Below, piece by piece: positions 1 to 39,611 of a stretch of 39,611 nt of DNA. Position numbers and translations under genes: made by a program. Positions within the stretch are counted from its first letter, which is position 1. The number at the start of each line of letters is the position of its first letter. Below the pieces are notes generated by a model that was not told the DNA's origin, did not search any database, and saw only the letters and a program-made list of their open reading frames with translations. Location: the sequence record PV615262.1; one strand, given 5' to 3'. Source of the DNA: Acinetobacter phage vB_Aba_01KA.

Positions 1-374
1 TGGCAGGTGGGTCGAGACATTATAGACACAGCTCGTCAGCAGCTCATTAAGGCCAACCCTTGGGTAGTGAACTCTCAGCTCTCCGTGGTTGAGCAGAATG
101 GCTCTATCTTCCTCCAAGACGCTACAGGTACTATTCGTATTCGCTACGATAAAGAACTTGTAGGTAAACTCTATCGTGAACAACAGCAGAAGGCACAAGA
201 TGCCGCATACGCTCAGGCAGAACGTGACGCTAACAAGCGAGCGCGTATCGTCGGGACTAAAGCTGCTGGTGACAAACGTCGAGCTGACCGAGAGGCCAAC
301 ATCGAGAAGCGCGGGGGATGTACAATGACGTCTCACTGGAGGGTATCGCAAACACCTTAATAGGTAAGGAGTAA
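1..374 (+). CDS. internal virion protein gp15 (T7 gene 15 homolog), C-terminal portion; continues the ORF that runs off the window end
   Basis: Frame-1 translation from base 1 (WQVGRDIIDTARQQLIKANPWVVNSQ...IRIRYDKELVGKLY) is colinear with the T7 gp15 C-terminus as I recall it. The track ORF ends at 360; a 1-nt slip in the G5 run at 313-317 would instead read ...MYNDVSLEGIANTLIGKE to TAA 372-374. Confidence 0.7.
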
Positions 375-379
375 CAACT

Positions 380-3300
380 ATGGCGACTCGTGGTATTCGC
401 AATAACAATCCGGGCAACATCCGGGTAAGTAAGGACCAATGGGAAGGAATGACTGGAGATGATGGCGCATTCGTCACCTTCGATAGTCCAGAGTCTGGCG
501 TCCGAGCTTTGGGTAAAAACCTGCTGTCTTACGGTCGCCAAGGTTACGACTCCATCGAGAAGATTATCAACCGATGGGCACCTCCTAATGAGAACGAAAC
601 TAAGGCTTATATTGACTCAGTGGTGGCTGCAACTGGTATTCCAGCTACCCAGAGTCTAGACCTATCGAACCCGGACACCCTGTCTGCTCTGGCGCAAGCT
701 ATTAGCTTCCATGAGACAGGCTCCCGGTACAATCCTGAAGTCTATCAGAAGGGAGTCGAAAGAGCACTTAATGGCATTAGCCCAAAGACTCCACCAGTAA
801 GCGCTAACGTATTTGACGCACTCACGGAAGGACTCAAGGCTAAACCTAAAGTAGCTCTGGGTGAGAACCTTCCGACCGCTGCTGGTCTAAACATTGAGGG
901 TCAAGCACCAGAAGCTCCCAACGAATCGTTTGGTGAGATGTTCTATAAGTCTACTGGCGAGACCATGCAGGAACGAGAGGAGCGCTCTACGTGGTTCGGT
1001 TTCGGCTCGGCTACAGAAGCTGAAGTGAAGAACTCTATGGTCGGCGTGGCTATCCGCGCTGGTCAGACAGAGGACTCACTTGATGTCATTGGCGATGTGT
1101 TCAACCCTACCCGCTGGAACAACCATAAGTGGTCTCGTGAGGAGCTGGACCAGATTCGTAACGCTGGAGTTCTCCCTCAGTATTACGGTGTCATTACTGG
1201 TGGCTCTCCTCAGAACCTGACCGAGCTTATTAACTTGGCTCTTGAGAACCAGAAGTTGGACCAAGAGAAGGCCAAGGCGGGGACTGGTGCTCAGTTAGCA
1301 GCTGGTGTGATTGGTGCTGGTGTAGACCCGCTGACCTACGTTCCTATCGCTGGACAGGTTGGCAAAGGTGCGAAGCTGGTCAACAAGATGTTCACCGTGG
1401 CTGCTCAATCTGGAGCACTTGCTGGTGTATCAGAGATGGCCCGTACCTCAGTGGCTGGTGGTGATGCTCATGTGGCTGAAGCTATCCTTGGTGGTGCTCT
1501 CTTTGGTGGTGGTATGACTGCCCTCGCTGATGGGTTAGGCAGAGCCTTAGGTCGCAACACTAATGAGTTTGCTGGCCCAGCTACACGTCTGGAAGCTCGT
1601 GAGACCGCTCGTAACGTTGATGGTCAGGACCTGTCTCGTCTTCCTATTCAGGAAGGTGAGCAGACCTTTAGTCATCAAGGCGTTAAGTTCGCTGACGTTC
1701 CTAATGAGCCGGGAAGTGTACGATTAGAAGATGGTTCAATCCTGATTGGTGAGAACCCTCTGAACCCTAAGACACGTCAAGTCTTCGACGAAGTGATTGA
1801 GCCAGAACGTGCCGCTGCTGGTGTGAACCTTGGTGGACTTACCGAGATTGGTCTGAAGCTGCTTCGGTCTGAGAACCCTGAGATTCGTGGAGTAGCTGCT
1901 GACTTAGTACGTTCACCTACTGGTATGCAGTCTGGGGCCTCAGGTAAAATGGGACAACTGCGTCAGACGTGTTCGAGAGGCTTCGTGCTGTGGACCATCG
2001 GTTCTACAACGACATCGACGATGCGGTTACTGAGGCACTAAAGGACCCGTACTTCCAGACAGCATTCTGGCGAGACTCTGGAGCATTCCGTCAGGACATC
2101 TACCAGCGCGTGTCTATGGCTATCGAAGATGGCAGCGGAAACCTGAAGGCTGAACTGACTCCGGGAGAACTTAAAGTCTATGACCTACTGAAGAACCAGT
2201 TTGACGCCAAGCGTGAAATGATGGAGAACCCAGCTATGTTTGGTCGGCCAGACGCTCAGTCTGTCTTTCCGGGTAGCCGCTTCAAGGGAACCTACGTCCC
2301 TCATGTGTATAGCAAACAGATGAAGGAGCTGTACACCAAGGAGCTTGGGAGTCCAGAGGCGTTGCAGGAGGCCATCAAGAAGTCATGGTTGACCAGCTAT
2401 GCGTCTCGCCCTGAAGTCAAGAAACGCGTGGACGAGGCACTCTTAGAGTCTGACCCTACGTTGACTCCAGAAGGACTTGCGGCTGCGGTCGATAAGTACG
2501 CCAACGATAAGGCTTACGGTATCTCCCACACCGAGCAGTTCGAACGTTCATCCGTAATGGAAGAGAACATCAACGGTCTGGTTGGTCTGGAGAACAACAG
2601 CTTCCTTGAGGCTCGTAACCTGTTCGATAGCGATATGTCAATCGTCCTACCTAACGGTCAGACCTTCAGTGTCAACAACCTGCGTGAGTGGGACATGGAC
2701 AAGATTGTCCCGGCCTACAACCGTCGAGTTAATGGCGATATTGCTATCATGGCTGGTACAGGCAAGACAACGAAAGAAATGAAGGACTTGGTTGAGACCA
2801 TGATGAACAAGGCTGGTGATGACGGAAAGTTGAAAGGTGAAGTATCTACCTTGCGTGACACACTGAAGATTCTAACTGGTCGTTCTCGACGTGATGGGGC
2901 TGACGATGCAGCCTTCGCTGCCGTGATGCGCACAATGACAGACCTATCGTTCTTCGCTAAGAATGCCTATATGGGTGTTCAGAACTTAACGGAGATTGGT
3001 GGTATGCTGGCCCGTGGTAACGTTCGTGCAATGCTTCATGGAGTCCCAATTTTCCGTGACCTAGCCTTCCGTAACAAGAAGGTAGGGGCCTCAGAGATTA
3101 AGGACCTGCACAATGTTATCTTCGGTAAGGAACTGGATGACTCAATCCGTCCGTCTAAACAGGATGTCATTGACCGTCTGCGATCTTACAGTGACCTCGG
3201 TCGTGGTACAGCTACAGCTCTGGGGACTGCCAAGTATTACACTGGCGAACTTGCAGTACGCTCTCCGTTCACTAAAGTCCTCAACGGTACTACCAACTAC

Positions 3301-4265
3301 CTGTTAGATGCTGGACGTCAAGGCTTCCTGTCTGACATCGTGGAGCATAGCCTGACTGGTAGTAAGCGTAAGTTCGATGACCGCTGGCTGAAGACCGCTG
3401 GTATCTCTGACGAGCAGTGGAAGGGCATTAAGTCCCTAATCCGTGAGTCAGTGACTCGTGGTCCAGACGGGAAGTATACCATCAAGGATAAGAAGGCGTT
3501 CAGTCAGGACCCAAGGGCTATGGACCTGTGGCGTATGGGAGATACCATCGCTGACGAAACGTTACTCCGGCCCCACAAGCTGTCCAACATGGACGCCAAG
3601 GCTTATGGTCCTCTCGCTAAGACTGTCCTTCAGTTTAAGAACTTCGTCATCAAGTCCATCAATGGTCGAACCATGCGAACCTTCTATAACGCCACGAAGA
3701 ACAACCGAGCGATGGATGCTGCCTTGTCCACTGTGATGTCTATGGGTCTGGCTGGTATCTACTACATGGCTCAGGCTCACGTCAAGGCTTACGCTATGCA
3801 GGATGGTAGAGACCGTGATTACCTCAAGCAAGCTCTTGACCCGACGATGATTGGATATGCAGCTCTATCACGTAGTTCACATCTGGGTGGTCCACTTGGG
3901 TAGCTAACATTCTGGGTGGCATCGCTGGGTATGAGGACACTAAGATGCTCCGTTCGTCTATCCTACCTCGTTCGCCTACAGAGAAGCCTGAACGTGCCAT
4001 CGCGTATGGTGCAGCTACAAGTGACCCTGTGATGAATGTTGTTGGTAACTTCTTGGAGCAGGTTCCAGCTTTCGGATATGCTGCTAACGTTGGCGCTTCG
4101 GCTTACAACTTGGCTGGCTACCTCAAGGCTGATACTCGTGTCAACGAGCGTGACTACATGACCGGGATGTATAATACGTTCCGTGAACTGGTTCCGAACG
4201 ACCCAATTACCCAGAAGCTGTTGCTTGGAACGTTTGAGGAGCAAGGTATCCACATCAAGGACTAA
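380..4265 (+). CDS. internal virion protein gp16 (core/ejection protein), interrupted by two apparent single-base frameshifts
   Basis: Three colinear ORF pieces (380-2041, 1969-3903, 3945-4265) match T7 gp16 from about residue 150 to the C-terminus (GTYVPHVY, SFLEARNLFDSD, TGKTTKE, ELVPNDP). They join if one G is restored in the GGG run near 1950 and one base near 3900-3945. RBS AAGGAG precedes ATG 380. The N-terminal ~130 aa are not T7-like. Confidence 0.85.
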
Positions 4266-4285
4266 ACTATCACTATAGGAAACGG
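4263..4285 (+). promoter_or_regulatory. phage RNA polymerase promoter (phi17-equivalent)
   Basis: TAAACTATCACTATAGGAAACGG, one of at least 11 copies of the T7-type consensus, with CACTATAGG core; +1 G about 4278; overlaps the gp16 stop. Confidence 0.8.
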
Positions 4286-4329: not shown

Positions 4330-7300
4330 ATGTCCACGATTACACAATTCCCTTCAGGAAACACTCAGTACAGGATTGAGTTCGACTACCTAGCCAGAAC
4401 GTTTATTGTTGTTACGCTGGTGAATAGCTCTAACCCTACCCTGAACCGTGTACTGGAAGTTGGTCGAGATTATCGATTCCTTAATCCAACGATGATTGAG
4501 ATGTTGGTTGACCAATCAGGTTTCGACATCGTTCGTATTCACCGTCAGACTGGAACTGACTTAGTGGTAGACTTCAGGAATGGCTCGGTGTTGACGGCTA
4601 GTGACCTGACCAATTCAGAGCTTCAGGCTATCCATATTGCAGAAGAAGGTCGAGACCAAACGGTTGACTTAGCGAAGGAATATGCCGATGCTGCTGGTAG
4701 CTCTGCTGGCAACGCTAAGGATAGCGAGGACGAAGCACGACGAATCGCTGAGAGTATCAGGGAAGCTGGTCTAATTGGCTATATCACCCGTCGCTCCTTC
4801 GAGAAAGGCTACAACGTTACAACATGGAGCGAGGTCCTGCTATGGGAAGAGGATGGTGATTATTACCGCTGGGATGGTACGCTTCCAAAGAACGTTCCTG
4901 CTGGTTCAACTCCTGAAACTTCCGGTGGGATTGGATTAGGTGCGTGGGTTAGTGTTGGTGATGCTGCTTTAAGAAGTCAGATTTCAAATCCTGAAGGGGC
5001 AATACTCTACCCTGAATTACATAGAGCACGCTGGCTTGATGAAAAAGATGTTCGTGGTTGGGGTGCTAAAGGGGATGGTGTCACTGATGATACAGCAGCG
5101 TTAACGAGCGCATTAAACGACATACCGGTTGGACAAAAGATTAATGGCAATGGGAAGACATATAAGGTCACATCCCTGCCTGATATTAGTCGCTTCATCA
5201 ACACTCGTTTCGTTTATGAGCGCATTCCCGGACAACCTCTTTATTATGCCTCTGAAGAATTTGTTCAGGGTGAGTTGTTCAAAATAACGGACACCCCTTA
5301 TTACAATGCGTGGCCTCAGGATAAAGCGTTCGTATATGAGAATGTGATATATGCACCTTACATGGGTAGTGATCGTCATGGCGTTAGTCGTCTGCATGTA
5401 TCATGGGTTAAGTCTGGTGATGATGGTCAAACATGGTCTACTCCAGAGTGGTTAACTGATCTGCATCCAGATTACCCTACAGTGAACTATCATTGTATGA
5501 GTATGGGTGTATGTCGCAACCGTCTGTTTGCCATGATTGAAACACGTACTTTAGCCAAGAACGAATTAACCAATTGTGCATTGTGGGATCGCCCCATGTC
5601 TCGTAGCCTGCATCTTACTGGTGGTATCACTAAAGCTGCAAATCAGCGATATGCAACAATACATGTACCAGACCACGGACTATTCGTGGGTGATTTTGTT
5701 AACTTCTCTAATTCTTCGGTAACAGGTGTATCCGGTGATATGACTGTTGCAACCGTAATAGATAAGGACAACTTCACGGTTCTTACACCCAACCAGCAGA
5801 CTTCAGATTCGAATAACGCTGGAAAGAATTGGCACATGGGTACTTCTTTCCATAAGTCTCCATGGCGTAAGACAGACCTTGGTCTAATCCCTCGTGTCAC
5901 AGAGGTGCATAGCTTTGCTACTATTGATAACAACGGCTTTGTTATGGGCTATCATCAAGGCGATGTAGCTCCACGCGAAGTTGGGCTTTTCTACTTCCCT
6001 GATGCTTTCAATAGCCCATCTAGTTATGTTCGTCGTCAGATACCATCTGAGTATGAACCAGATGCGTCAGAGCCGTGCATCAAGTACTATGACGGTGTAT
6101 TATACCTTATCACTCGTGGCACTCGTGGGGATAGACTAGGTAGCTCTTTGCATCGTAGTAGAGACATAGGTCAGACTTGGGAGTCACTGAGATTTCCACA
6201 TAATGTTCATCATACTACATTACCTTTTGCTAAAGTAGGGGATGACCTTATTATGTTTGGTTCAGAACGTGCAGAAAATGAATGGGAAGCAGGTGCACCA
6301 GATGATCGTTACAAGGCATCTTACCCTCGCACCTTCTATGCACGCTTGAATGTAAACAATTGGAATGCAGATGATATTGAATGGGTTAACATCACTGACC
6401 AGATTTATCAGGGCGGAATAGTTAACTCAGGTGTAGGTGTTGGTTCGGTAGTTGTGAAGGATAATTACATCTACTACATATTTGGTGGAGAGGACCATTT
6501 TAACCCATGGACATATGGAGATAACTCAGCGAAGGATCCCTTCAAATCGGATGGTCATCCCTCAGATTTGTATTGCTACAAAATGAAGATTGGCCAAAGC
6601 AATCATGTTTCCCGTGACTTCAGGTATGGTGCTGTACCTAACAGAGCTGTTCCGTGTTTTTTGATACGAATGGGATTCGCACTGTTCCTGCGCCAATGGA
6701 ATTTACAGGGGATTTGGGTTTAGGTCATGTGACCCTTAGAGCCAGCACCAGTAGTAACATTCGCTCTGAAGTTTTAATGGAAGGTGAATATGGGTTTATC
6801 GGGAAGTCTATACCGACTGATAACCCGGCAGGGCAGCGCATCATATTTTGCGGGTGAAGGCACCAGTTCAACGACTGGCGCACAGATTACGCTTTATGGT
6901 GCAAATAACACCGACTCAAGGCGAATAGTTTACAATGGTGCTGAGCATCTGTTCCAGAATGCTGACGTTAAGCCTTATCTCGATAACGTGATTGCGCTTG
7001 GTGGGCCAAGCAACCGATTCACTACTGCATACCTTGGAAGCAACCCTATTGTTACTTCTAATGGGGAGAGGAAAACAGAGCCGGTAGTTTTTGATGATGC
7101 TTTCCTAGATGCCTGGGGTGACGTTCACTACATCATGTATCAATGGTTAGATGCTGTTCAACTGAAAGGCAATGATGCTCGTATTCACTTCGGGGTTATT
7201 GCTCAGCAAATTCGTGATGTATTCATTGCACACGGTCTGATGGATGAAAACAGTACGAATTGTCGTTATGCCGTTCTGTGTTATGACAAGTATCCACGGA

Positions 7301-7521
7301 TGGCCGATACGGTATTTTCGCACAATGAAATCATTGAACACACTGACGAGGAGGGTAATGTCACCACTACGGAAGAGCCTGTATTCACTGAGGTGGTTAT
7401 CCATGAAGAGGGTGAGGAGTGGGGTGTTCGGCCTGACGGAATTTTCTTTGCTGAAGCCGCTTATCAGAGAAGAAAACTGGAAAGAATCGAAGCCAGACTT
7501 TCTGCTCTTGAACAGAAGTAA
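4330..7521 (+). CDS. tailspike protein gp17 with endosialidase (endo-N-acetylneuraminidase) domain and C-terminal intramolecular chaperone domain; two apparent frameshifts
   Basis: N-terminus resembles the T7 gp17 adaptor (EFDYLARTFIVVTL, DYRF, LVDFRNGSVLTASDL). Asp-box motifs SGDDGQTWS and SRDIGQTWES. C-terminal ...IHFGVIAQQIRDVF...RKLERIEARLSALEQK fits the self-cleaving chaperone domain. Pieces 4330-6723, 6654-6857 and 6784-7521 join via indels near 6655 and in the T run near 6845. RBS AGGAGG. Confidence 0.85.
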
Positions 7522-7656: not shown

Positions 7657-7851
7657 ATGATTGAGTTAGACTTCAAGAATGAGGTCCTTAAAGCCTCTCC
7701 TATCGTCGGGACCGCTGCGGCTGATGGTGCCAGTCGGTTCTTCTTCGGACTTACACTGAACGAATGGTTCTACGTTGCAGCTATCGCGTACACCGTTGTC
7801 CAGATTGGTGTGCTAGTCTACAAAACGATTAAAGGAGGTGGTAAAACATGA
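7657..7851 (+). CDS. class II holin (T7 gp17.5 homolog)
   Basis: 64 aa; FFFGLTLNEWFYVAAIAYTVVQIG matches the T7 gp17.5 core as I recall it; RBS GGAGG; syntenic after the tailspike. Confidence 0.8.
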   Translation: MIELDFKNEVLKASPIVGTAAADGASRFFFGLTLNEWFYVAAIAYTVVQIGVLVYKTIKGGGKT

Positions 7852-8111
7852 CGCAGATGGACTTAGAGAAGTTCCTCTTGATGCTTGATACTGAGCGTGC
7901 TCGACTTATGCTGCAAGACTTGCGGGATGACACTAAGCGTTCACCTCAGCTCTACAACTCCATTGAGAAGCTACTGGCTCGTCACAACTTTGTGTTAAGC
8001 AAGGTGTCTGTTGACGAGAAGACGCTGGCTGATATGGAGGCCCTGAACGCAGAGTACGATAAGGTGCTCTCCGCTACGGAAGATAATGACACCGGGTACG
8101 GTGTTCAATAA
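7848..8111 (+). CDS. terminase small subunit (T7 gp18 homolog)
   Basis: 87 aa ORF at the position and size of T7 gene 18; start overlaps the holin stop (ATGA). Confidence 0.7.
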   Translation: MTQMDLEKFLLMLDTERARLMLQDLRDDTKRSPQLYNSIEKLLARHNFVLSKVSVDEKTLADMEALNAEYDKVLSATEDNDTGYGVQ

Positions 8112-8115
8112 GTGT

Positions 8116-8168
8116 TAGACTCAAGGTCATTACTATATGTAGTGGCCTTTATGGTTAACACTAACTAG
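8116..8168 (+). promoter_or_regulatory. conserved RNA hairpin, probable RNase III processing site (R18.5-like)
   Basis: TAGACTCAAGGTCAT box; stem AAGGUCAUUAC/GUAGUGGCCUU with two G-U wobbles; same element recurs at 17371 and 24121 with compensatory changes. Confidence 0.5.
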
Positions 8169-8212
8169 TGGAGGCGACTCTACGTGAAATCTGATAAACC
8201 GGGAGGGCAACT

Positions 8213-8662
8213 ATGCTCGAATTTTTAAAGAGGGCGGCTCCGTGGTTACTTGCAGCAGTGATGTTTGCTGGTGGCTACCACACCGCTAACAATAAGTGGG
8301 AGGCTAAGGTCAATGAAGAATACACCTCGAATCTTAAGGCATCGGAGGATACAAGACTTGCTGTCCAAGCTGAAGTCAACAAAGTGTCCAAACGGTTTCA
8401 GGACGAAATGTCCTCGCTGGAAGGCAGCACTGATAGGATTATTGCTGACCTTCAGTCTGACAATAAGCGGCTGCGCATCCGAGTCAAACCAACGAGTGGA
8501 ACCACGCAAAGTGACGGTCGATGCGTCATTGATGGTTACGCCGAACTTGACGAACGAGATGCTAAACGTCTTATCGCCATCGGAGTGAAAGGAGACAAGT
8601 GGATTAAGGCACTTCAAGACACTGTGAGAGCCTTACAGCAAGATAAGGAGGTGACGCATTGA
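8213..8662 (+). CDS. i-spanin (Rz-like, T7 gp18.5 homolog)
   Basis: 149 aa, N-terminal hydrophobic segment ([12 protein letters not shown]) then charged coiled-coil-like region; syntenic between the terminase subunits; RBS GGGAGGG. Confidence 0.7.
8265..8588 (+). CDS. candidate o-spanin (Rz1-like lipoprotein, gp18.7 equivalent) embedded in the +1 frame of the i-spanin gene; true start uncertain
   Basis: Embedded ORF encodes ...[20 protein letters not shown], a lipoprotein-type signal with lipobox ISGC, followed by a short mature peptide; the N-terminal part of the listed ORF is probably not translated. Confidence 0.4.
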   Translation: MLVATTPLTISGRLRSMKNTPRILRHRRIQDLLSKLKSTKCPNGFRTKCPRWKAALIGLLLTFSLTISGCASESNQRVEPRKVTVDASLMVTPNLTNEMLNVLSPSE

Positions 8663-10515: not shown

Positions 10516-10538
10516 CTTAACTATCACTATAGGGAAGA
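10516..10538 (+). promoter_or_regulatory. phage RNA polymerase promoter (phiOR-equivalent near the right genome end)
   Basis: CTTAACTATCACTATAGGGAAGA, consensus match; located after gene 19 as phiOR is in T7. Confidence 0.75.
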
Positions 10539-11398: not shown

Positions 11399-11451
11399 TA
11401 ATAGACACAAAGCTATAGACTTAAGGTCAAAGACATGTTAGTCAAAGACTA

Positions 11452-24119: not shown

Positions 24120-24120
24120 G

Positions 24121-26819: not shown

Positions 26820-26838
26820 GCCAACACGGAGGCTGTCT

Positions 26839-28405: not shown

Positions 28406-28419
28406 CTGTAGGAGGGACT

Positions 28420-28644: not shown

Positions 28645-28648
28645 GACA

Positions 28649-29071: not shown

Positions 29072-29317
29072 ATCAATCAGTAAGGCTTTCAAGAAAGTGG
29101 TGAAAAGTACGTTAGGGACCGTTGGTCTTGGCTCTGACGATGCACCTAAGGTTGTTGCGGCTCAGACCCAGCACCAGCAGCACCAGTGGAAGTACCGAAC
29201 GATAAAGTGGAAGATGTGGATACCGAAGCAACCGCATCTGACGAGAAGAAAGTGAAGCGTTCAGGTAAGCGGAGCCTTCAGGTCTCTCGCACCTCTGGTG
29301 GCGGTATTTCTATTTAA
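29064..29317 (+). CDS. gp7.3-like tail protein, one apparent frameshift
   Basis: GTG start MGKSISKAFKKVVK; the alternative frame downstream reads ...VEVPNDKVEDVDTEATASDEKKVKRSGKRSLQVSRTSGGGISI-stop (29315-29317), matching the T7 gp7.3 C-terminus style. Confidence 0.55.
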
Positions 29318-29328
29318 GGAGGTGACGA

Positions 29329-30895: not shown

Positions 30896-30913
30896 ACTAT
30901 CACTATAGGAACA
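30891..30913 (+). promoter_or_regulatory. phage RNA polymerase promoter (phi9-equivalent)
   Basis: CCTAAACTATCACTATAGGAACA; overlaps the portal stop. Confidence 0.8.
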
Positions 30914-30915
30914 AC

Positions 30916-31009
30916 TAGAGCCACTCAAAGTGGGACTTACTGTAGCGCAAACAATGACCGTGGGTAGTGAGCCTAGGTCATCCTACAGGTCCTACTTTGA
31001 GTGGCTCTA
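30916..31009 (+). promoter_or_regulatory. large nested inverted repeat (structured 5' leader of the gene 9 transcript)
   Basis: Perfect 16-bp arms TAGAGCCACTCAAAGT (30916-30931) and ACTTTGAGTGGCTCTA (30994-31009); inner pairs CTGTAG/CTACAG and ATGACC/GGTCAT. Confidence 0.55.
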
Positions 31010-31039
31010 CCTATTAACGACTTAAAGGAGAATGACTTA

Positions 31040-31924
31040 ATGTCTCAATCAGTTTATGCCGAGTTCGGCGTTAGCTCTAATGCAATCACTGGTTCCGTTG
31101 AGGACCTGAACGAACACCAAAAGTCTATGCTTGAACAGGACGTAGCTGTTCGCGATGGCGACGACGCTATTACCTTCAAGCAACTGGAAGCCGAAAACGA
31201 AGAGGCGACTGAAGAAGACGAAAACGTCGAAGAGACTGAAGGTGAAGAAGACCACGAGTCCGATGACGAAGAGTCTGAGACAGATGGTGAGCAGCCTGAG
31301 TTCATCGAACTGGGTGATGCACCGAAAGAGCTGACCGAAAGTGTCACCGCTCTGGATGAAAACGAAGCTGCATTTGACGACATGGTGTCTTCTGCTGTAG
31401 AAGCCGGCAAGGTCACTGCTGATGAAATTACCGCTATCAAGGCTGAATACGCCAAGGACGGTAAGCTGTCTGACGCATCCTACGCTAAGTTGCAGGAAGC
31501 AGGTTACACCAAGCGTTTCGTAGATTCGTTTGTCCGTGGTCAGGAAGCGCTGGCTGAACAGTATGCTGCTGGTGTGGTTCGCTACGCTGGTGGAGCTGAA
31601 CAGTTTAACCGCATCCTGTCTCACCTTGAGTCAAACGACCCGTCAACTCGTGAGGCACTGGAAGCTGCTATCGTTCGTAAGGACATTGCTACTACCAAAG
31701 CACTGCTGAATCTGGCTGGCAAGACTCTGGGTAAAGCTGTGGGTGTTAAACCTCAGCGTACCATCACCACGCAGGCTAAACCTGTGGTCGCACCTAAGGC
31801 TCCTCAGACCGAAGCATTCAGCTCCAAGGCTGACATGATTAAGGCTATGAGTGACCCGCGATACCTGCGTGACGCTAAATACACGATGGAAGTTCGCGCT
31901 AAGGTAGCTGCCTCAAGCCTGTAG
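31040..31924 (+). CDS. capsid assembly (scaffolding) protein gp9
   Basis: VYAEFGV, ARDGDDAI, highly acidic central region, SYAKL.E.GYTK.F.DS..RGQEAL.EQY, ends MIKAMSDPRY as in T7 gp9; start at ATG 31040 after AAGGAGAA rather than the longer track ORF. Confidence 0.85.
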   Translation: MSQSVYAEFGVSSNAITGSVEDLNEHQKSMLEQDVAVRDGDDAITFKQLEAENEEATEEDENVEETEGEEDHESDDEESETDGEQPEFIELGDAPKELTESVTALDENEAAFDDMVSSAVEAGKVTADEITAIKAEYAKDGKLSDASYAKLQEAGYTKRFVDSFVRGQEALAEQYAAGVVRYAGGAEQFNRILSHLESNDPSTREALEAAIVRKDIATTKALLNLAGKTLGKAVGVKPQRTITTQAKPVVAPKAPQTEAFSSKADMIKAMSDPRYLRDAKYTMEVRAKVAASSL

Positions 31925-31925
31925 G

Positions 31926-31948
31926 ACTAAACTATCACTATAGGGAGA
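31926..31948 (+). promoter_or_regulatory. phage RNA polymerase promoter (phi10-equivalent, closest to full T7-like core)
   Basis: CTAAACTATCACTATAGGGAGACC. Confidence 0.85.
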
Positions 31949-32081
31949 CCAAGAGATAGACTCAAGGTTTTCCCACTAAGTCAGTACATACGGATTGTGC
32001 TGCAAGCTTGGCAACGATAGGCCCGTCTGGTCAGCGCTAGTGACCGAACCCAAACTAAAATTGAACAAGGAGAATTATCAT

Positions 32082-33125
32082 ATGGCAAACGTTCCGGGTC
32101 AGAAAATTGGTGCAGACCAAGGTAAAGGCAAATCCAGTTCCGACGCTCTGGCGTTGTTCCTGAAGGTATTTGCTGGTGAAGTCCTGACAGCATTCACTCG
32201 CCGCTCTGTAACTGCTGACAAGCATATTGTCCGTACCATTCAGAACGGTAAGTCTGCTCAGTTCCCGGTCATGGGTCGCACCTCTGGTGTGTATCTGGCT
32301 CCGGGTGAGCGACTGTCCGATAAGCGTAAAGGTATCAAACATACCGAGAAAGTGATTACCATTGATGGTCTGCTGACTGCCGATGTGATGATTTTCGACA
32401 TTGAAGACGCAATGAACCACTATGACGTGGCTGGCGAGTATTCCAACCAGTTGGGCGAAGCTCTGGCTATCGCTGCTGATGGTGCGGTGCTGGCTGAAAT
32501 GGCGATCCTGTGTAACCTCCCGGCTGCATCCAACGAGAACATCGCGGGTCTGGGCACTGCGTCCGTACTGGAAGTTGGTAAGGCAGCAGACCTGAACACT
32601 CCTGCTAAACTGGGTGAAGCAATCATTGGTCAACTGACCATTGCTCGTGCGAAGCTGACCTCCAACTACGTTCCTGCTGGCGACCGTTACTTCTACACCA
32701 CTCCTGACAACTACTCTGCAATCCTCGCGGCTCTGATGCCGAACGCTGCTAACTATGCTGCGCTGATTGACCCAGAGACTGGTAACATCCGTAACGTAAT
32801 GGGCTTCGTGGTTGTTGAAGTTCCACACTTGACTCAGGGTGGTGCTGGTGAAACTCGTGGTGAGGATGGTATCACTATTGCAACTGGTCAGAAGCACGCC
32901 TTCCCAGCTACTGCTGCTGGTGATGTTAAAGTTGCTCTGGACAACGTTGTGGGCCTGTTCTCTCACCGTTCGGCTGTAGGCACTGTGAAGCTGCGTGACT
33001 TGGCGCTGGAACGTGACCGTGACGTAGATGCTCAGGGCGACCTGATTGTTGGTAAATACGCTATGGGTCACGGTGGTCTGCGTCCTGAAGCGGCTGGCGC
33101 ACTGGTTTTCAGCCCAGCGACGTAA
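32082..33125 (+). CDS. major capsid protein gp10A
   Basis: ALFLKVF.GEVLTAF, GKSAQFPV, HTEKVITIDGLLTADV, EDAMNHYDV, AALMPNAANYAALIDPE, IRNVMGF.VVEVPHLT, SAVGTVKLRDLALER, AMGHGGLRPEAAG nearly colinear with T7 gp10A; ATG 32082 after AAGGAGAA. Confidence 0.9.
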   Translation: MANVPGQKIGADQGKGKSSSDALALFLKVFAGEVLTAFTRRSVTADKHIVRTIQNGKSAQFPVMGRTSGVYLAPGERLSDKRKGIKHTEKVITIDGLLTADVMIFDIEDAMNHYDVAGEYSNQLGEALAIAADGAVLAEMAILCNLPAASNENIAGLGTASVLEVGKAADLNTPAKLGEAIIGQLTIARAKLTSNYVPAGDRYFYTTPDNYSAILAALMPNAANYAALIDPETGNIRNVMGFVVVEVPHLTQGGAGETRGEDGITIATGQKHAFPATAAGDVKVALDNVVGLFSHRSAVGTVKLRDLALERDRDVDAQGDLIVGKYAMGHGGLRPEAAGALVFSPAT

Positions 33126-33256
33126 GCACCTTTAGCCAACCTAACGTCGCTACAGTAGCGGCTGCACCTGAAGAGGAGACTCTAACTCCTCAACAGAAAG
33201 CTGCGCGTACTCGTGCTGCGAACAGGGCCGCTAAACTGGCTGAGTCCAACAACTAA
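32082..33256 (+). CDS. minor capsid protein gp10B (predicted -1 ribosomal frameshift product)
   Basis: GGTTTTC at 33104-33110, at the same relative position as in T7 gene 10; the -1 frame is open for 48 codons to TAA 33254-33256 (QPSDVSTFSQPNVATVAAAPEEETLTPQQKAARTRAANRAAKLAESNN). Confidence 0.5.
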
Positions 33257-33261
33257 TTGAA

Positions 33262-33299
33262 ACCCCTTGGGTGCCTTCGGGTGCTTGAGGGGTTTTTTG
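33262..33299 (+). terminator. Tphi-like late terminator
   Basis: AACCCCTTGGGTGCC-TTCG-GGTGCTTGAGGGG followed by TTTTTTG; near-identical in form to the T7 Tphi hairpin. Confidence 0.8.
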
Positions 33300-33313
33300 C
33301 TTAAGGAGGTACT

Positions 33314-33403
33314 ATGGTCCTTATTTACACAGGGTTAGCACTATTCGTCTTATTCTGGGCGTACCTGCTGTCCAGCTCACCGTCTAGCGCCTATGACCGT
33401 TAA
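33314..33403 (+). CDS. possible small hydrophobic peptide (29 aa) between Tphi and gene 11
   Basis: AAGGAGGT 5 nt before ATG 33314; MVLIYTGLALFVLFWAYLLSSSPSSAYDR; stop overlaps the gene 11 RBS. Confidence 0.3.
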   Translation: MVLIYTGLALFVLFWAYLLSSSPSSAYDR

Positions 33404-33414
33404 GGAGTAAACCT

Positions 33415-33981
33415 ATGGCTCAATACATTCCACTGAATGCTAACGATGACTTAGACGCCATCAACGATATGTTAGCTGCTATCGGTGAACCAGCAGTCCT
33501 ACAGCTTGACGAGGGGAACGCTGACGTCTCAAACGCTCAACGTATCCTGCATCGTGTCAATCGTCAGGTCCAAGCTAAAGGCTGGAACTTTAATATCAAT
33601 GAAGCTGCTGTCCTGACACCTGATGTCCAAGACAATAGGATTCGATTCTTGCCGTCATACCTTCGCGTAATGACCGCTGGGGCCACCAGCTACTACAGCA
33701 ACATGGGTGGATACCTGTACGACCTATCCACTCAGTCAACCACTTTCACCGACCCCATCACGGTAGAGCTTGTGGAGATGAAGCCATTCTCCGAGATGCC
33801 TGTGGTCTTCAGGGACTACATCGTCACTAAAGCTAGCCGTGAGTTCAACGCTAAGTTCTTCGGTAGCCCAGAGTCAGAGCTATACCTTCGTGAGCAGGAA
33901 GCAGAACTCTATCAGCAGGTTATGGAGTACGAGATGGATACTGGGCGCTACAACATGATGTCTGACATCGGGAGGGACTAA
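33415..33981 (+). CDS. tail tubular protein A (gp11)
   Basis: 188 aa; RBS AAGGAG; position and size of T7 gene 11. Confidence 0.8.
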   Translation: MAQYIPLNANDDLDAINDMLAAIGEPAVLQLDEGNADVSNAQRILHRVNRQVQAKGWNFNINEAAVLTPDVQDNRIRFLPSYLRVMTAGATSYYSNMGGYLYDLSTQSTTFTDPITVELVEMKPFSEMPVVFRDYIVTKASREFNAKFFGSPESELYLREQEAELYQQVMEYEMDTGRYNMMSDIGRD

Positions 33982-34208
33982 TGGCTAGTCACAACCTGAA
34001 GATTCACCGCCAGCACTTTGGTCCGGTACAGCTAGGCCTAAAGACAGCAGAGCTGAGACTTAACGACCGGGACTTTAAGGTTGGCGATTGGCTTATCCTG
34101 AATGAGTGGGACAACGGGTATACTGGACAACAGGTAGCACGTAAGGTTGTCCACATTGCTGACGTTGGTGACATCGCTGAGGGATACGTCCTAATGAGTA
34201 TGATTTAA
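33981..34208 (+). CDS. small PUA-like (ASCH/DUF3850-type) protein inserted between genes 11 and 12
   Basis: 75 aa; LKIHRQHFGPVQLGLKTAELRLNDRDFKVGDWLILNEWDNG..YTG pattern resembles the ASCH/DUF3850 small-protein family as I recall it; ATGA start overlap with gene 11. Confidence 0.5.
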   Translation: MASHNLKIHRQHFGPVQLGLKTAELRLNDRDFKVGDWLILNEWDNGYTGQQVARKVVHIADVGDIAEGYVLMSMI

Positions 34209-34217
34209 GGAGGGCCT

Positions 34218-36574
34218 ATGCCACTAATTACTCAATCAATCAAGAACCTTAAAGGTGGCATTAGCCAGCAGCCAGACATACTGAGGTTCTCAGACCAAGG
34301 CGAGGAGCAAATTAACTGCTGGTCATCAGAGAGTGATGGCCTCCAGAAGCGCCCACCTACAGTCTTCAAGAGACGTCTTAACATCGACGTTGGGAGCAAC
34401 CCTAAGTTCCACCTGATTAACCGTGATGAGCAGGAGCAGTATTACATCGTGTTCAACGGGTCCAACATTCAGGTAGTAGACTTGAGCGGCAATCAATACT
34501 CAGTTTCTGGTGCGGTAGACTACGTTCAGTCCTCCAACCCACGAGATGACATCCGTGTCGTTACCGTGGCAGACTATACGTTCGTCGTTAACCGTAAGGT
34601 TGTCGTCAAAGGCGGAAGCGAGAAGTCACACTCTGGTTATAACCGCAAAGCACGAGCTTTAATTAACCTGCGTGGTGGACAGTATGGTCGCACCCTTAAG
34701 GTAGGAATCAATGGAGGCGTTAAAGTTTCGCATAAGTTGCCAGCAGGTAATGATGCCGAGAATGACCCTCCTAAGGTTGATGCTCAGGCTATCGGTGCGG
34801 CTCTGAGAGACCTTCTTGTTGCTTCTTACCCTGCCTTCACGTTCGACCTTGGGTCTGGCTTCCTGTTAATCACTGCCCCCTCAGGGACTGACATTAACTC
34901 AGTGGAGACGGAGGATGGCTATGCTAACCAGCTAATAAGCCCAGTCCTAGACACTGTGCAGACAATCTCTAAACTGCCTCTTGCCGCTCCTAATGGATAT
35001 ATCATTAAGATTCAAGGTGAGACAAACAGTAGCGCCGATGAATACTACGTGATGTATGACTCCAACACTAAGACGTGGAAGGAGACAGTGGAGCCGGGAG
35101 TTGTCACTGGGTTCGATAACACCACAATGCCCCACGCTCTGGTACGACAATCTGATGGCTCCTTTGAGTTCAAGACTCTGGACTGGTCGAAGCGTGGTGC
35201 TGGTAATGATGATACAAACCCTATGCCTAGCTTCGTGGATGCTAAGATTAACGATGTGTTCTTCTACAGGAATAGGCTGGGGTTCTTGTCAGGTGAGAAC
35301 GTAATCATGAGCCGTTCAGCCAGCTACTTTGCGTTCTTCCCTAAGAGTGTGGCGACACTGAGTGATGATGACCCTATTGATGTAGCTGTAAGTCACCCTC
35401 GAATCTCAATCCTTAAGTATGCCGTTCCGTTTAGCGAGCAGCTACTACTTTGGTCGGATGAAGTTCAGTTCGTGATGACAAGCTCTGGTGTCCTTACCTC
35501 GAAGTCTATCCAGCTTGATGTAGGCTCAGAGTTTGCCCTAGGTGACAATGCCAGACCGTTCGCTGTAGGACGCTCAGTCTTCTTCTCAGCGCCTCGTGGA
35601 TCATTCACCAGCATTAAGCGATACTTCGCTGTAGCTGATGTGTCTGATGTGAAGGATGCAGATGATACAACTGGTCACGTACTGTCCTACATCCCTAACG
35701 GGGTGTTTGATATTCAAGGTACAGGTACTGAGAACTACATCTGCGTCAACTCTACAGGTGCATACAACCGAATCTACATCTACAAGTTCTTGTTTAAGGA
35801 CGGCGTACAGCTTCAAGCCTCTTGGTCACACTGGGAGTTCCCTAAAGATGATAAGATTCTTGCGTCTGCATCTATTGGCTCTACCATGTTCATCGTTCGT
35901 CAGCACCAATGGGGGTAGACATTGAGCACCTTAAGTTCATCAAGGAGGCAACTGACTTTCCGTCAGAGCCGTATAGACTCCACGTTGACTCCAAGGTGTC
36001 TATGGTCATCCCAATTGGCTCGTTTAATGCTGACACATATAAGACTACGGTTGACATTGGTGCTGCTTATGGCGGTAACGCTCCGTCTCCCGGTAGGTAC
36101 TATCTGATTGATAGTCAGGGTGCTTATTTGGACCTTGGGGAATTAACCAGTATCTCTACTGTGATTACCCTCAACGGCGATTGGTCAGGACGTACAGTGT
36201 TCATCGGACGGTCCTATCTGATGTCCTACAAGTTCTCACGGTTCCTGATTAAGATTGAAGATGATAGGGGCACTCAGTCTGAAGACACTGGTCGTCTACA
36301 GCTTCGTCGGGCTTGGGTCAACTACAAGGACACTGGCGCTCTGAGACTCATTGTCAGAAACGGTGAGCGAGAGTTCGTTAACACCTTTAATGGGTACACC
36401 CTTGGTCAGCAAACCATAGGGACTACTAACATTGGTGACGGGCAGTATCGCTTCGCTATGAATGGTAACGCATTAACCACGAGTCTAACCTTAGAGTCCG
36501 ACTATCCTACCCCAGTGTCAATCGTTGGGTGTGGCTGGGAGGCGTCATACGCTAAGAAAGCTCGTTCCGTCTAA
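34218..36574 (+). CDS. tail tubular protein B (gp12), one apparent frameshift near 35905
   Basis: ITQSIKNLKGGISQQPD..R start region and overall length (566 + 221 aa pieces) match T7 gp12; RBS AAGGAGGG. Confidence 0.85.
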
Positions 36575-36581
36575 CTTATTG

Positions 36582-36631
36582 AAGGGCCTATAGATTTACC
36601 TTAACTATCACTATAGGGACTATAGGCCCTT
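36582..36631 (+). promoter_or_regulatory. phage promoter (phi13-equivalent, core 36602-36619) embedded in a perfect 12-bp inverted repeat
   Basis: AAGGGCCTATAG (36582-36593) and CTATAGGCCCTT (36620-36631) flank TTAACTATCACTATAGGGA. Confidence 0.7.
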
Positions 36632-36650
36632 AAGGTTATAAGGAGACTTT

Positions 36651-37052
36651 ATGTATATTCGCAAGGCTACGGAACCTGATGTCCACTACTTTCTGTGGCA
36701 TCTTTCAGCAGATGATGTTAATGAGTGCAAAGCAAACTACGGGTCAACCGTTGGTCTCTCTGAAAGACTGCTTAAGCACCTATCTCCGTCATCTGTGGTT
36801 TTAACGAACGGTGTAGGCGAAGTGTTTGCCTATGGTGGAAACCAAGGGGATAACGTATGGTTCTTGACTTCAGGTCTGGTCTATAAGCTGAGACCTAAAG
36901 AGAAGCGAGAGTTCATAAAGCATATCTCTGAGTACAGGGACTTAATGTTAGACCAATACGGGACCATCTGGAACTACGTGTGGTCAGGCAATAAGTCTCA
37001 CATTAAATTCTTGAAGTTGCTTGGGCTAAATTCCATGATGATTGGACTGTAA
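36651..37052 (+). CDS. internal virion protein gp13
   Basis: 133 aa; RBS AAGGAGA; synteny and size. Confidence 0.7.
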   Translation: MYIRKATEPDVHYFLWHLSADDVNECKANYGSTVGLSERLLKHLSPSSVVLTNGVGEVFAYGGNQGDNVWFLTSGLVYKLRPKEKREFIKHISEYRDLMLDQYGTIWNYVWSGNKSHIKFLKLLGLNSMMIGL

Positions 37053-37104
37053 GCCCAGTAACTGGTGAGCGTTTTCAACTATTCACTATCTCTAAGGAGG
37101 ACGT

Positions 37105-37692
37105 ATGTGCGAGCCAATTAGCATAGGCATGGGTGTACTGTCTGTAGCCGGGGCCACTATGTCCGCATCCCAACAGGCCAAGGCTGAGGGTGCAGCCATC
37201 GACGCTCAGAACCGACAGGCTCAGGAAATGGTTAAGCAGATGAACTACTCTGATGCCAACCTGAGGATGCAGGAGCGAGACCTGAAGGAGCAGCAGATGG
37301 CTGAACTGACAGAGACCACGCTCAACGGTATCCGCAATCAGGGTATGGTCAGAGCTGCGGTGGCTGAGTCCGGTCTGGAAGGTAACTCTATGGACAGGAT
37401 TGAACGTCAGGTCGCAGGAGATACAGTCAAGGAGCGAGCGGGGATTACCGAAAGTTACAACCGCGACTATGCGGCTATCTTCGGGAACCGTATCGCCAAC
37501 ATTGAGAACACCAAGTCTGCTATCCGTGGTCAAGGTAAAATCATCAAGACCAGCCCACTGGCTCATGCACTTAATGTTGCTAACGCCGGGATGCAAGGTT
37601 ACGCCGCTGGTAAGTCAATCTCTGGAGCGTCCAGCTCTGGCGGTGCTGCACCAATTAGTGCTGCTAAAGGCACACCTACAGGTCATAGCTAA
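37105..37692 (+). CDS. internal virion protein gp14
   Basis: 195 aa; RBS AAGGAGG; N-terminal hydrophobic segment; synteny and size. Confidence 0.7.
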   Translation: MCEPISIGMGVLSVAGATMSASQQAKAEGAAIDAQNRQAQEMVKQMNYSDANLRMQERDLKEQQMAELTETTLNGIRNQGMVRAAVAESGLEGNSMDRIERQVAGDTVKERAGITESYNRDYAAIFGNRIANIENTKSAIRGQGKIIKTSPLAHALNVANAGMQGYAAGKSISGASSSGGAAPISAAKGTPTGHS

Positions 37693-37703
37693 GAGGAGGA
37701 CTA

Positions 37704-39611
37704 ATGGCTAGTAATATTGAATCAGCTCTGGCTAATCGGACTATGGGTCGTGGCAGAGCGCCTGGTAAAACTATCGCCGTCAACTATCAAGCAGCCAGCG
37801 TTCAGGCTCCAACTGGTGACTCCGGTCTGGCTCGTGCGTTAACCAACTTCGTTGAGTCTGGGACTGGATTGTACAAGCAGTTCAAGGACGAGGAGAAGAC
37901 CAGAGCTGACGAGCGGTCTAACGAGATTATCCGTAAACTGACACCTCAACAAAGACGTGAGGCTATCCAGAACGGCACATTGCTGTATCAGGATGACCCT
38001 TACGCTATGGAAGCACTTCGAGTCAAGACTGGTCGTAATGCTGCCTTTGCTGTAGACGACGAGATTAACGTTAAGATTCAGAACGGTGAGTTCCGTACAC
38101 GTCAGGACATGGAAGAGTATCGCCACCAGCGACTTCAGGATGCCGCTAAGTCCTATGCTGAAGAGGTGGGCATTAACCCTACAGACGAGTTCTTCCAGCG
38201 TGGGTTCAACGATAACATCACAGACCGCAACATCGCTATCTATGGGTCTTTCAATAAGTATTTCAGCAAGCAGTCTGAAGAGACAGCAATGTTGAACACC
38301 CGTATTGAGATGAACTCATTCCTGAACGATGGCGACCTGATGCGTTCACCTGAGTCTGGCAAGACATTCATGGCCTACCTTCGTGATGGACTGACTACTG
38401 CTGCTATCCCCTCGGACCAGCGAGCGCGGGAGGTCATTACCCAGACGGTCCGTGACGCAATCCAGAAGTCAGGCGGCTCAAGCTTCCTACAGCAAGTACG
38501 AGGCGAGCGAATCACCCTTAACGGCGTGGATGCTACAGTCGAAGAGATTGTAGGACCTGATGTCTTCAACGCTGCTATTGTTGAGGCACAAGGAACTGAG
38601 TACAAGCTGGTGGCTAAGTATCAGGAAGACTTAGCGTTAGGCGTTCAGTCTGCGATTCTTCAGGACGACCCAACCATCGGTCTTGCCCAGATTCAGAAAC
38701 TCAAGGAGCAGAACAACCTGCTTCAGCCGGGTGAAGAACTTACGCCTCAGCGTCAGATGCTTATTAATGCCGAAGCCAGCTTACTGGAAGCGGTAAAGCG
38801 TAAGTCTGCTGAACAGGCGAAGGAGAACACGAAGTTAATCCAGACCCAGAACAAGCAACTGGTCATTGACCAAGTTTATCAGCGACGTCTGGCTGGAGAC
38901 AACGTGTCCACCAACTATGAGGACCTTCCGGTCTCTGAAGCCACAGGAGAGTACAAGCGTTCAGACATGAACAACTATGCGTCTTCTAAGCTACAGCAGA
39001 TTGACCAGATGGACATCCCTGAGGCTGCTAAGGACGCACAGAAGGTGGCATTGTTAAGAGCTGACACTAACAACGGTCCGTTCCGTAATGCCTTCCAGAC
39101 GCTTACTCAGGACGCTGCTGGTGAGTGGCAAGCTGCCGTCATCCGTGGACAGTACGACCCAGACAAGATGCAACGCTTCGAGTCTCTTCGTCGTGCCTAC
39201 AATCAGGACCCTTCAAGTTTCGCTGCTCTATATCCTGACCAAGCTCAGTTGTTCTCTACGTTCGACCAGATGGACAAGATGGGTCTGGACCCTCAGACGA
39301 TGATTGAAGCTGATAAGCAAGCTGCAAGCCAAAGCCGTGAGATGCGCATGGAGTCAGACAAGGCGTGGCAGGAGTTGAAGAACGACTCTAGGAATAAGGA
39401 CCTTTCGCGTCTTCCTACGTCTCTAGACTCAAGTGCTCGTAAGGTCTGGGACTCATGGTACTATCGTACAGGTAACGCTGACGCTGCAACACAGCAGACT
39501 CAACGCTGGCTGAATGAGAACACCGTAACGTTCCAGTCTGAAGGTTCTGACGGTAAGTCCATCGGCATGGTGTCCAAGCACCAGCTTATGGTCGGGGATA
39601 ACCCAGAGTCG
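37704..39611 (+). CDS. internal virion protein gp15, N-terminal 636 codons (no stop in window; continues at base 1)
   Basis: ATG 37704 after GAGGAGGA; ERSNEIIRKLTPQQRREAIQNGTLLYQDDPYAMEALRVKTGRNAAF, AALYPDQAQLF and DKMGLDPQ closely match T7 gp15 as I recall it; frame is open to the last base. This ORF is not in the supplied track. Confidence 0.85.
   Translation, partial: MASNIESALANRTMGRGRAPGKTIAVNYQAASVQAPTGDSGLARALTNFVESGTGLYKQFKDEEKTRADERSNEIIRKLTPQQRREAIQNGTLLYQDDPYAMEALRVKTGRNAAFAVDDEINVKIQNGEFRTRQDMEEYRHQRLQDAAKSYAEEVGINPTDEFFQRGFNDNITDRNIAIYGSFNKYFSKQSEETAMLNTRIEMNSFLNDGDLMRSPESGKTFMAYLRDGLTTAAIPSDQRAREVITQTVRDAIQKSGGSSFLQQVRGERITLNGVDATVEEIVGPDVFNAAIVEAQGTEYKLVAKYQEDLALGVQSAILQDDPTIGLAQIQKLKEQNNLLQPGEELTPQRQMLINAEASLLEAVKRKSAEQAKENTKLIQTQNKQLVIDQVYQRRLAGDNVSTNYEDLPVSEATGEYKRSDMNNYASSKLQQIDQMDIPEAAKDAQKVALLRADTNNGPFRNAFQTLTQDAAGEWQAAVIRGQYDPDKMQRFESLRRAYNQDPSSFAALYPDQAQLFSTFDQMDKMGLDPQTMIEADKQAASQSREMRMESDKAWQELKNDSRNKDLSRLPTSLDSSARKVWDSWYYRTGNADAATQQTQRWLNENTVTFQSEGSDGKSIGMVSKHQLMVGDNPES

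Follow-up and report, generated by a model that had tools for sequence, protein, structure and literature searches.

In T7-type phages, the virion contains linear DNA whose two ends carry a short direct repeat, and the K1-capsule-specific T7-like phages draw interest with regard to phage therapy against K1 Escherichia coli. Two of the described systems closest to the genome analyzed here are T7 (V01146), with its one-strand layout from gene 0.3 to gene 19.5, and K1F (DQ111067 / NC_007456), the type species of Kayfunavirus. We analyzed the whole 39,611 nucleotides of record PV615262.1 (hereinafter, the window) and conclude with high confidence that it represents the assembled complete genome of a lytic, K1F-like, T7-type podophage (Kayfunavirus, Studiervirinae), essentially the phage vB_Eco_1RS, that the ends of the record probably resulted from collapse of the terminal repeat, and that the numerous frame breaks are errors.

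A nucleotide alignment of the window with GenBank PV615263 (Escherichia phage vB_Eco_1RS) showed 99.9% identity from end to end, the differences being 6 mismatches and 29 gap positions, so the genome in the window is already known, the same sequence being public under that accession. A literature search found no paper on vB_Eco_1RS. This deposit, along with the frame-breaking indels, was missed in the preliminary description of the window. The window aligns colinearly with K1F throughout, the alignment covering 94.5% of it with an overall similarity of 88.8% (blastn segments). By the established practice of the ICTV, a phage belongs to a genus when its nucleotide similarity to the type species, taken across the genome, is 70% or higher, and these values place the window within Kayfunavirus; the same 88.8% falls below the 95% similarity that would make it the same species as K1F, and the 99.9% identity makes it the same species as vB_Eco_1RS. 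The other best records cover 94-97% of each window half at 95-96% identity, which is under the 95% line when the whole genome is considered. We consider it somewhat more probable than the opposite that the window and vB_Eco_1RS constitute a Kayfunavirus species apart from K1F and all other deposited relatives, and hold with the same modest preference that in this species an endosialidase of the K1F type occurs together with a DNA polymerase gene that has no intron. Even if true, the separate-species reading is a taxonomic nicety that entails no new biological mechanism, and the biological consequence is small, namely, one more, presumably K1-capsule-specific, T7-like phage.

The preliminary description characterized the window as a K1F-like T7-type genome with the full T7 gene order on one strand, and both parts of this characterization are borne out. 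Every conserved T7 protein between 0.3 and 19.5 has a match on the plus strand, in the T7 order, and 40 of the 42 tested K1F proteins match the same strand in order; the succession of early, DNA metabolism, structural and packaging genes is that of the T7 type. The GC skew is positive throughout the window. All features described below are on the plus strand. The early genes start at 11867 with an 84-aa ORF (11867-12121; phrog_10124) that has putative RNase III-type hairpins on either side (11800-11862 and 12118-12180, with folds of -20.4 and -23.8 kcal/mol, respectively) and is followed by gene 0.3, encoding the Ocr DNA mimic (12194..12691; PF08684, E 5e-29, with K1F and T7 protein matches). 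The T7-type trait of a phage-encoded single-subunit RNA polymerase in the early region is represented by gene 1 (14125..16804), although, as written, four single-base indels (14762, 15287, 15667 and 15954) divide this gene into five frames; its product is 98% identical to the K1F RNA polymerase over most fragments and 49-73% identical to that of T7. The DNA ligase gene 1.3 (17876..18972; one frame break, at 18664) is followed by the DNA metabolism block (20094..27922), consisting of genes 2.5, 3, 3.5, 4 (two breaks), 5 (one break), 5.5, 5.7 and 6, and by the structural block (28133..37692), with genes 6.5, 6.7, 7, 7.3, 8 (two breaks), 9, 10, 11, 12 (one break), 13 (one break) and 14, where an ASCH/DUF3850 ORF (33981-34208) separates gene 11 from gene 12. 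Gene 16, for the internal virion protein D with a transglycosylase (380..4265), is divided among three frames by indels near 1951 and 3901. The region 7657..8662 holds genes 17.5 (holin), 18 (small terminase) and 18.5 (Rz-like spanin), all with K1F and T7 matches. The large terminase gene 19 lies at 8659..10420, its frame being broken near 10137, where a CT repeat has lost 2 nt. A scan of the window for tRNAs yielded none, and an Rfam scan of the window at gathering thresholds produced no match.

Eleven matches to the phage promoter consensus ACTATCACTATAGGRA were detected, all on the plus strand, compared to 0.5 expected; the promoter regular expression fits 10 of these 11 and also 10 sites in K1F, with the positions conserved. 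Presumably, these 11 sites are recognized by the phage polymerase. Among them are the match in the phi17 position (4266..4281), which is conserved in K1F, and the phiOR equivalent (10520..10535), with the same site at K1F 38857. Putative host sigma-70 promoters resemble T7 A1 (11513..11541; TTGACT, 17 nt, CTTAAT, aligned to T7 A1) and T7 A3 (11652..11681; TTGACA, 18 nt, TAATAT), the latter agreeing with the consensus at 10 of 12 positions and sharing 'ATGTACCACAT' with T7 A3. The assignment of the host promoters and RNase III sites follows this resemblance to T7 and is to be regarded as a prediction; in a generic scan of the terminal region for sigma-70 promoters and terminators, sites were no more numerous than in shuffled sequences. 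A TE-like terminator is located 3' of gene 1.3 (18982-19010) and the Tphi terminator between genes 10 and 11 (33259-33298).

The endosialidase tailspike reported in the preliminary description is encoded by gene 17 (4330..7521), for which Pfam and PHROGs identify the T7-tail adaptor, the endosialidase domains and the S74 chaperone. The Pfam endosialidase domain set is complete, with PF12217 (End_beta_propel) detected at E 7e-223 in addition to PF12195, PF12218, PF12219 and PF13884, the names in this set being End_N_terminal, End_beta_propel, End_beta_barrel, End_tail_spike and Peptidase_S74; these endosialidase domains sit behind the N-terminal adaptor of the T7 tail fiber. A stretch of 200 nt between a 1-nt loss (6652) and a 2-nt loss (6852) is out of frame. 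Judging by its domain content, the product has the trait of the K1-specific phages, that is, an endo-N-acetylneuraminidase tailspike with a beta-propeller catalytic domain and a C-terminal S74 chaperone.

The ends of the record fall within gene 15, which encodes the internal virion protein C. The 5' part of this gene (37704..39611) starts with an ATG at 37704 and runs off the window end after 1908 nt (0 mod 3), and the 3' part resumes at base 1 and reaches a stop codon ending at 360, for an ORF of 755 aa. Residues 1-743 of K1F gp15 form a single HSP in an ungapped frame, with 99% identity, over 37704-39611 and then 1-321, in full agreement with the earlier claim that gp15 resumes in frame at base 1; a 1-nt loss at about 315 alters the last 13 codons, and the K1F-like frame would end near 374. 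Because window positions 1 and 39611 pair with K1F 28335 and 28334, respectively, and thus abut inside gene 15, the junction shows neither loss nor duplication of sequence. Both points on which the preliminary description staked its reading, namely, a colinear alignment with T7-like genomes and a gp15 frame that joins across the window ends, came out in its favor.

Its placement of the genome's terminal region in mid-window, at about 10.4-11.9 kb, is likewise confirmed for the 19.5-like ORF, phiOR, the repeat arrays, the host promoters and the early genes. The gene 19.5-like ORF of 52 aa (10717..10875; phrog_2193, E 3e-24; 33% identity to T7 gp19.5, E 5e-4) precedes an array of short repeats of the CCTAAGG / CCTACAG type (10900..11090) that lies to the left of the terminal repeat and would form the right-end repeat region of the mature genome. 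Both copies of the 178-bp terminal direct repeat of K1F (1-178 and 39527-39704) map to one site in the window, 11115..11278, which apparently is the single collapsed copy, with a predicted left end at 11115 and right end at 11278. On its two flanks, the window has exactly the same contexts as K1F, 'ACCACA|TCTCACAGTT' and 'GAGTCTC|TATCTGTAT'. On the other side lies the left-end repeat array (11309..11400), with three copies of a 15-bp unit (11314-11356) and more copies of ACCTACAGT; repeats of this type thus flank the terminal repeat on both sides, 6 of the 8 copies in the window being within 10880-11480. The mature genome would then extend from 11115 round to 11278, for a length of about 39,775 bp, with the physical ends and the repeat length predicted by homology alone; the comparison of the repeat boundaries was confined to K1F and T7 because most of the related records are deposited in permuted form. 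In the related phage F, the repeat is 165 bp long and 88% identical to that of K1F (PMC5582158).

Could the permutation be biological, that is, could the virion DNA be truly permuted by headful packaging or the genome be circular? The window closes on itself without terminal redundancy, neither a terminal overlap nor a long direct repeat or second terminal-repeat copy being found within it (repeats longer than 30 nt are confined to promoters, a paralogous early-gene tail and RNase III-type sites), and most related GenBank records share the permuted form. Nevertheless, we regard this explanation as very improbable: the terminase is 97% identical to that of K1F and 67% identical to that of T7, the repeat carried by the K1F record is exact, the window preserves its homolog along with the two cut-site contexts, and K1F-like phages group with the short-direct-repeat packagers in the terminase phylogeny (PMC5582158). 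Permuted deposits, moreover, are the usual outcome of repeat collapse during assembly. Conceivably, the assembler collapsed the two repeat copies, closed the contig into a circle and cut it at an arbitrary point that happened to fall inside gene 15. The term 'circularly permuted' used in the preliminary description is therefore true of the record, whereas the virion DNA, by homology to K1F and T7, should have fixed ends. 'Near-complete' is apt twice over, given that only one copy of the terminal repeat, of about 164 bp, is present and that the consensus carries about 21 frame-breaking indels.

These breaks affect 14 genes, including those for the RNA polymerase (4 breaks), gp4, gp5, gp8, gp12, gp16, gp17 and gp19. 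In the DNA metabolism and structural blocks, the break sites include 22699, 23216, 25205, 29559, 30567 and 35912. The breaks would be real if the sequence were that of a defective variant or of a phage remnant that is decaying and no longer functional, and their sheer number, as well as the similarly fragmented genes annotated in the GenBank twin PV615263, could be taken to point in this direction. However, the sequence has no host DNA on either side, its ends join to give a complete genome, and the break sites are at homopolymers, features on which a decayed prophage was also rejected. Within each fragment, amino acid identity to K1F is 95-100%, with no other sign of decay, and PV615263, whose source is a plaque-forming isolate, keeps intact frames at the sites broken in the window and has its own breaks at different sites. 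Eight essential genes are broken, including those for the RNA polymerase, primase-helicase, DNA polymerase, portal and terminase; from established T7 genetics, this is incompatible with a plaque-forming isolate. At about 20 of 22 inspected break sites, 1-2 nt are lost at or beside runs of G, C or A, and about 25 of the 29 indel differences between the window and PV615263 are differences in run length; among the 24 indel differences inside the K1F alignment, the K1F-like length is in the window at 9 and in PV615263 at 15. Genuine decay being highly unlikely, the frame breaks are base-calling or consensus errors at homopolymers, not real mutations, with long-read sequencing as the most likely source, although the breaks in locally diverged sequence (ligase, 18664; gp13, 37025) may reflect a real difference. 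A chimeric misassembly, with parts of two different T7-like phages joined at the window ends or elsewhere, is the least credible possibility of all: the mosaic identity to K1F (70% to 98% per segment) and several unmatched accessory segments might suggest it, but mosaic accessory genes are normal for Kayfunavirus, the gene order is fully colinear with no core gene duplicated or lost, and the independent record PV615263 carries the same sequence end to end.

The practical value of the window lies in the matter of data quality, with its rotation, missing repeat copy and homopolymer indels in essential genes. The record ends are not phage ends, and any gene- or protein-level use of the sequence needs indel correction; left uncorrected, the indels lead to artefactual 'split', 'truncated', 'novel small' or minus-strand ORFs.

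By homology to T7 and K1F, the infection cycle can be outlined tentatively. The gp17 endosialidase tailspike would open the way to the cell by degrading the K1 capsule of polysialic acid; the host RNA polymerase would start at the A1- and A3-like promoters and transcribe the early genes, including those for Ocr and the phage RNA polymerase, as far as the TE-like terminator; the phage polymerase would then drive the replication, structural and packaging genes from the 11 conserved promoters; and the terminase gp18/gp19 would cut concatemers at the repeat.

Among known systems, vB_Eco_1RS (Kayfunavirus; sewage, Kilifi, Kenya) matches the window in gene content and in the way its genes are fragmented. 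Its record is of the opposite strand, is cut 1,121 nt away, likewise inside gene 15, and is 39,612 bp long compared to 39,611 bp; the substitutions and indel positions that separate the two are chiefly homopolymer run-length differences. With T7, the window shares the one-strand layout, the A1- and A3-like host promoters, phiOR, gene 19.5, the TE and Tphi terminators and, at the predicted left end, the sequence TCTCACAGT with which the T7 left end begins. The core proteins are 36-81% identical to those of T7, the promoter sequence differs, and T7 genes 0.7, 2.8, 3.8, 5.3, 7.7 and many small genes are lacking; only the N-terminal adaptor of T7 gp17 is shared, the fiber being replaced by the endosialidase tailspike. 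With K1F, by contrast, the window has in common the gene order, the promoter consensus and positions, a homologous terminal repeat (178 bp in K1F versus a predicted 164 bp) with identical cut-site contexts, and a gp17 tailspike with 92% amino acid identity; it differs from K1F in the ASCH/DUF3850 ORF, in several small early genes, in the alleles of genes 1.7 and 5.5, and in gene 5, which is free of the 600-bp homing-endonuclease insert that interrupts its K1F counterpart.

In a megablast comparison of the window with 50,697 phage records, we observed a single full-length match at 99.9% identity, on the opposite strand, to PV615263 (Escherichia phage vB_Eco_1RS; 39,612 bp; genus Kayfunavirus), whose source was sewage in Kilifi, Kenya; identities of 90-96% were seen with hundreds of further Kayfunavirus records. 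Direct comparison yielded two segments, 1-38488 and 38491-39611, with 6 mismatches and 29 gap positions in total, so PV615263 is the same genome as the window, written as the reverse complement and opened at a point about 1.1 kb away. Judged by sequence comparison, the window is a T7-type Kayfunavirus in every testable respect, and it belongs to one species with vB_Eco_1RS and to a species other than that of Escherichia phage K1F (DQ111067), with which its overall similarity is 88.8%.

The ends of the window join within gene 15, which, as proposed in the preliminary description, begins at 37704, leaves the window end and resumes in frame at base 1. From 37704, exactly 1908 nt (0 mod 3) are left to the window end, and the frame, continued at base 1, stays open until a stop ending at 360, for a total of 755 aa. 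In the doubled window, residues 1-743 of K1F gp15 form a single HSP of 99% identity that spans the junction; moreover, window positions 39611 and 1 pair with the consecutive K1F bases 28334 and 28335, and the window ends are therefore neighbouring bases of one genome. The join is real, far beyond chance; no terminal overlap of the window ends and no long direct repeat anywhere in the window were found.

The terminal region lies in mid-window, at about 10.4-11.9 kb, and all the elements previously assigned to it could be located. Gene 19 ends at 10420 and is followed by a phage promoter at the phiOR position (10520-10535) and a 52-aa gene 19.5-like ORF (10717-10875; phrog_2193, E 3e-24; T7 gp19.5, E 5e-4). 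Short repeats stand on both sides of the terminal repeat: six of the eight window copies of ACCTACAGT fall within 10880-11480, and 11314-11356 holds three copies of a 15-bp unit. Host promoters are predicted at 11513-11541 (TTGACT-17-CTTAAT, aligning with T7 A1) and 11652-11681 (TTGACA-18-TAATAT, with ATGTACCACAT common to T7 A3); a generic promoter scan of the terminal region did not rise above shuffles, so these calls rest on similarity to T7. Two RNase III-type hairpins (11800-11862 and 12118-12180), the start of the early genes (11867) and ocr (12194-12691) complete the region.

The K1F and T7 (V01146) records carry exact direct terminal repeats of 178 bp and 160 bp, respectively. Both K1F copies map to one window site, 11115-11278, a 164-bp segment with about 90% identity to the K1F repeat and a 15-bp deletion; the related phage vB_EcoP_F reportedly has a repeat of 165 bp, 88% identical to that of K1F (PMC5582158). 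Both boundaries are conserved. The left boundary, ttggaccaaaagtttgagaccaca/TCTCACAGTTCAAGAACC, is identical to the right-end context of K1F, and the first nine bases of T7, TCTCACAGT, are those found at this boundary. The right boundary, GAGTCTC/tatctgtat, matches K1F, and T7 has ...GTCCCT/atctgtta. We infer that the mature DNA would begin at 11115, pass across the joined window ends and finish at 11278, with a length of about 39,775 bp, the assembler having probably collapsed two terminal-repeat copies into one; most related GenBank records are likewise deposited permuted, with a single repeat copy.

Closure and colinearity thus bear out the permuted, near-complete genome of the preliminary description, which, however, missed an indel-ridden consensus. 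Essential genes are already in pieces in the ORF list of the window, with about 21 frame breaks in 14 genes. Alignments to K1F and T7 agree on four breaks in the RNA polymerase gene (14762, 15287, 15667 and 15954), two each in gp4, gp8 and gp16, and one each in ligase, gp5, gp12 and gp19; the K1F alignment alone backs those in gp3.7, gp5.7, gp7.3, gp13, the gp15 C-terminus and gp17, where a pair of 1-nt and 2-nt breaks (6652 and 6852) leaves the 200 nt between them out of frame. At about 20 of the 22 inspected sites, the window is 1-2 nt shorter, in or next to G, C or A runs (for example, GGGGG to GGGG and GGTGGG to GGGGG). About 25 of the 29 indel differences from PV615263 are run-length differences; of the 24 inside the K1F alignment, the K1F-like length is in the window in 9 and in PV615263 in 15, so the two records are broken at different places. 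By established T7 genetics, no phage could form plaques with frameshifts in every one of RNA polymerase, primase-helicase, DNA polymerase, portal, tail tube and terminase; we therefore conclude that the breaks are consensus errors, of a kind typical for uncorrected long-read data. No paper on vB_Eco_1RS was found. In the annotation of PV615263, many genes are cut into "hypothetical proteins", and one CDS (38073-38651), within the gene 15 region, runs against the strand of all others; these look like artefacts of the same indel errors.

The motif ACTATCACTATAGGRA, with up to 3 mismatches, occurs at 11 sites, all on the plus strand (4266, 10520, 14038, 17356, 19060, 20036, 22155, 28054, 30896, 31931 and 36604), against 0.5 expected, and K1F has the same phage-promoter set at corresponding positions. 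The site at 14038-14053, which precedes the phage RNA polymerase gene by about 70 nt and is kept in K1F at 2479, would let the phage polymerase transcribe its own gene; unlike the window and K1F, T7 has no phage promoter at this position. Downstream of the ligase gene lies a TE-like terminator (18982-19010), and downstream of gene 10 a strong Tphi-like hairpin that ends in a T run (33259-33298). A 53-nt plus-strand direct repeat (87% identity), downstream of gene 18 (8115-8167) and of the phi1.1-position promoter (17371-17423), suggests, by position and sequence style, candidate RNase III processing sites.

The K1F-like, T7-type character proposed initially was confirmed by alignment. By blastn, 15 colinear segments of 70-98% identity to K1F cover 94.5% of the window, and 40 of the 42 K1F proteins tested match the plus strand in order. 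With the window rotated to start at 11115, T7 proteins 0.3, 1, 1.2, 1.3, 1.6, 1.7, 1.8, 2, 2.5, 3, 3.5, 4, 5, 5.7, 6, 6.5, 6.7, 8-19 and 19.5 match on one strand in T7 order (33-81% identity); T7 genes 0.7, 2.8, 3.8, 5.3 and 7.7, along with many small ones, are missing from the window, as they are from K1F. Every 2-kb bin has a positive GC skew.

Several local differences accompany this colinearity. At 26196-26198, in gene 5, the window lacks the 600-bp insert of K1F (14936-15534; HNH homing endonuclease, joined CDS), and its DNA polymerase gene is uninterrupted save for one frameshift at 25205. Genes 11 and 12 abut in K1F, whereas in the window a 75-aa ASCH/DUF3850 ORF ("RNA-binding protein", phrog_986; 33981-34208, plus strand) separates these tail genes; the insert is common in Kayfunavirus, since many records carry it at >95% identity and 149 cover the region. 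Two adjacent early ORFs (13282-13771, plus strand), with 97% and 41% identity to K1F gene 0.6, look like diverged paralogues of that gene, and they share, at their 3' ends, a 51-nt direct repeat of 92% identity (13433-13483 and 13721-13771). Segments with weak or no K1F match (12845-13279, 16820-17050, 19354-19888 and 26379-26610) hold small early ORFs, a 76-aa ORF after gene 1 (phrog_28104), a DUF3310-type allele of gene 1.7 and an allele of gene 5.5 that has only 40% identity to its K1F counterpart; this is the usual mosaicism. At 23912-23921, gp4 aligns to the last residue of T7 gp4A (566) and only to residue 564 of the 586-aa K1F annotation, the C-terminus of which may reflect an indel or a real difference.

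The endosialidase tailspike of the preliminary description is confirmed at the sequence level by the gene 17 product (4330-7521), which has 92% identity to K1F gp17. Pfam detects the T7 tail-fibre N-terminal adaptor (PF03906), Tail_spike_N, End_N_terminal, End_beta_propel (E 7e-223) with End_beta_barrel inserted, End_tail_spike and a Peptidase_S74 chaperone; with T7 gp17 it has only residues 12-119 in common. The use of these results is as a warning on the record, with its arbitrary origin, absent repeat copy and frameshift errors. None of the findings is new: the sequence is already public, rotated single-repeat assemblies are routine in the group, and the layout is that of textbook T7.
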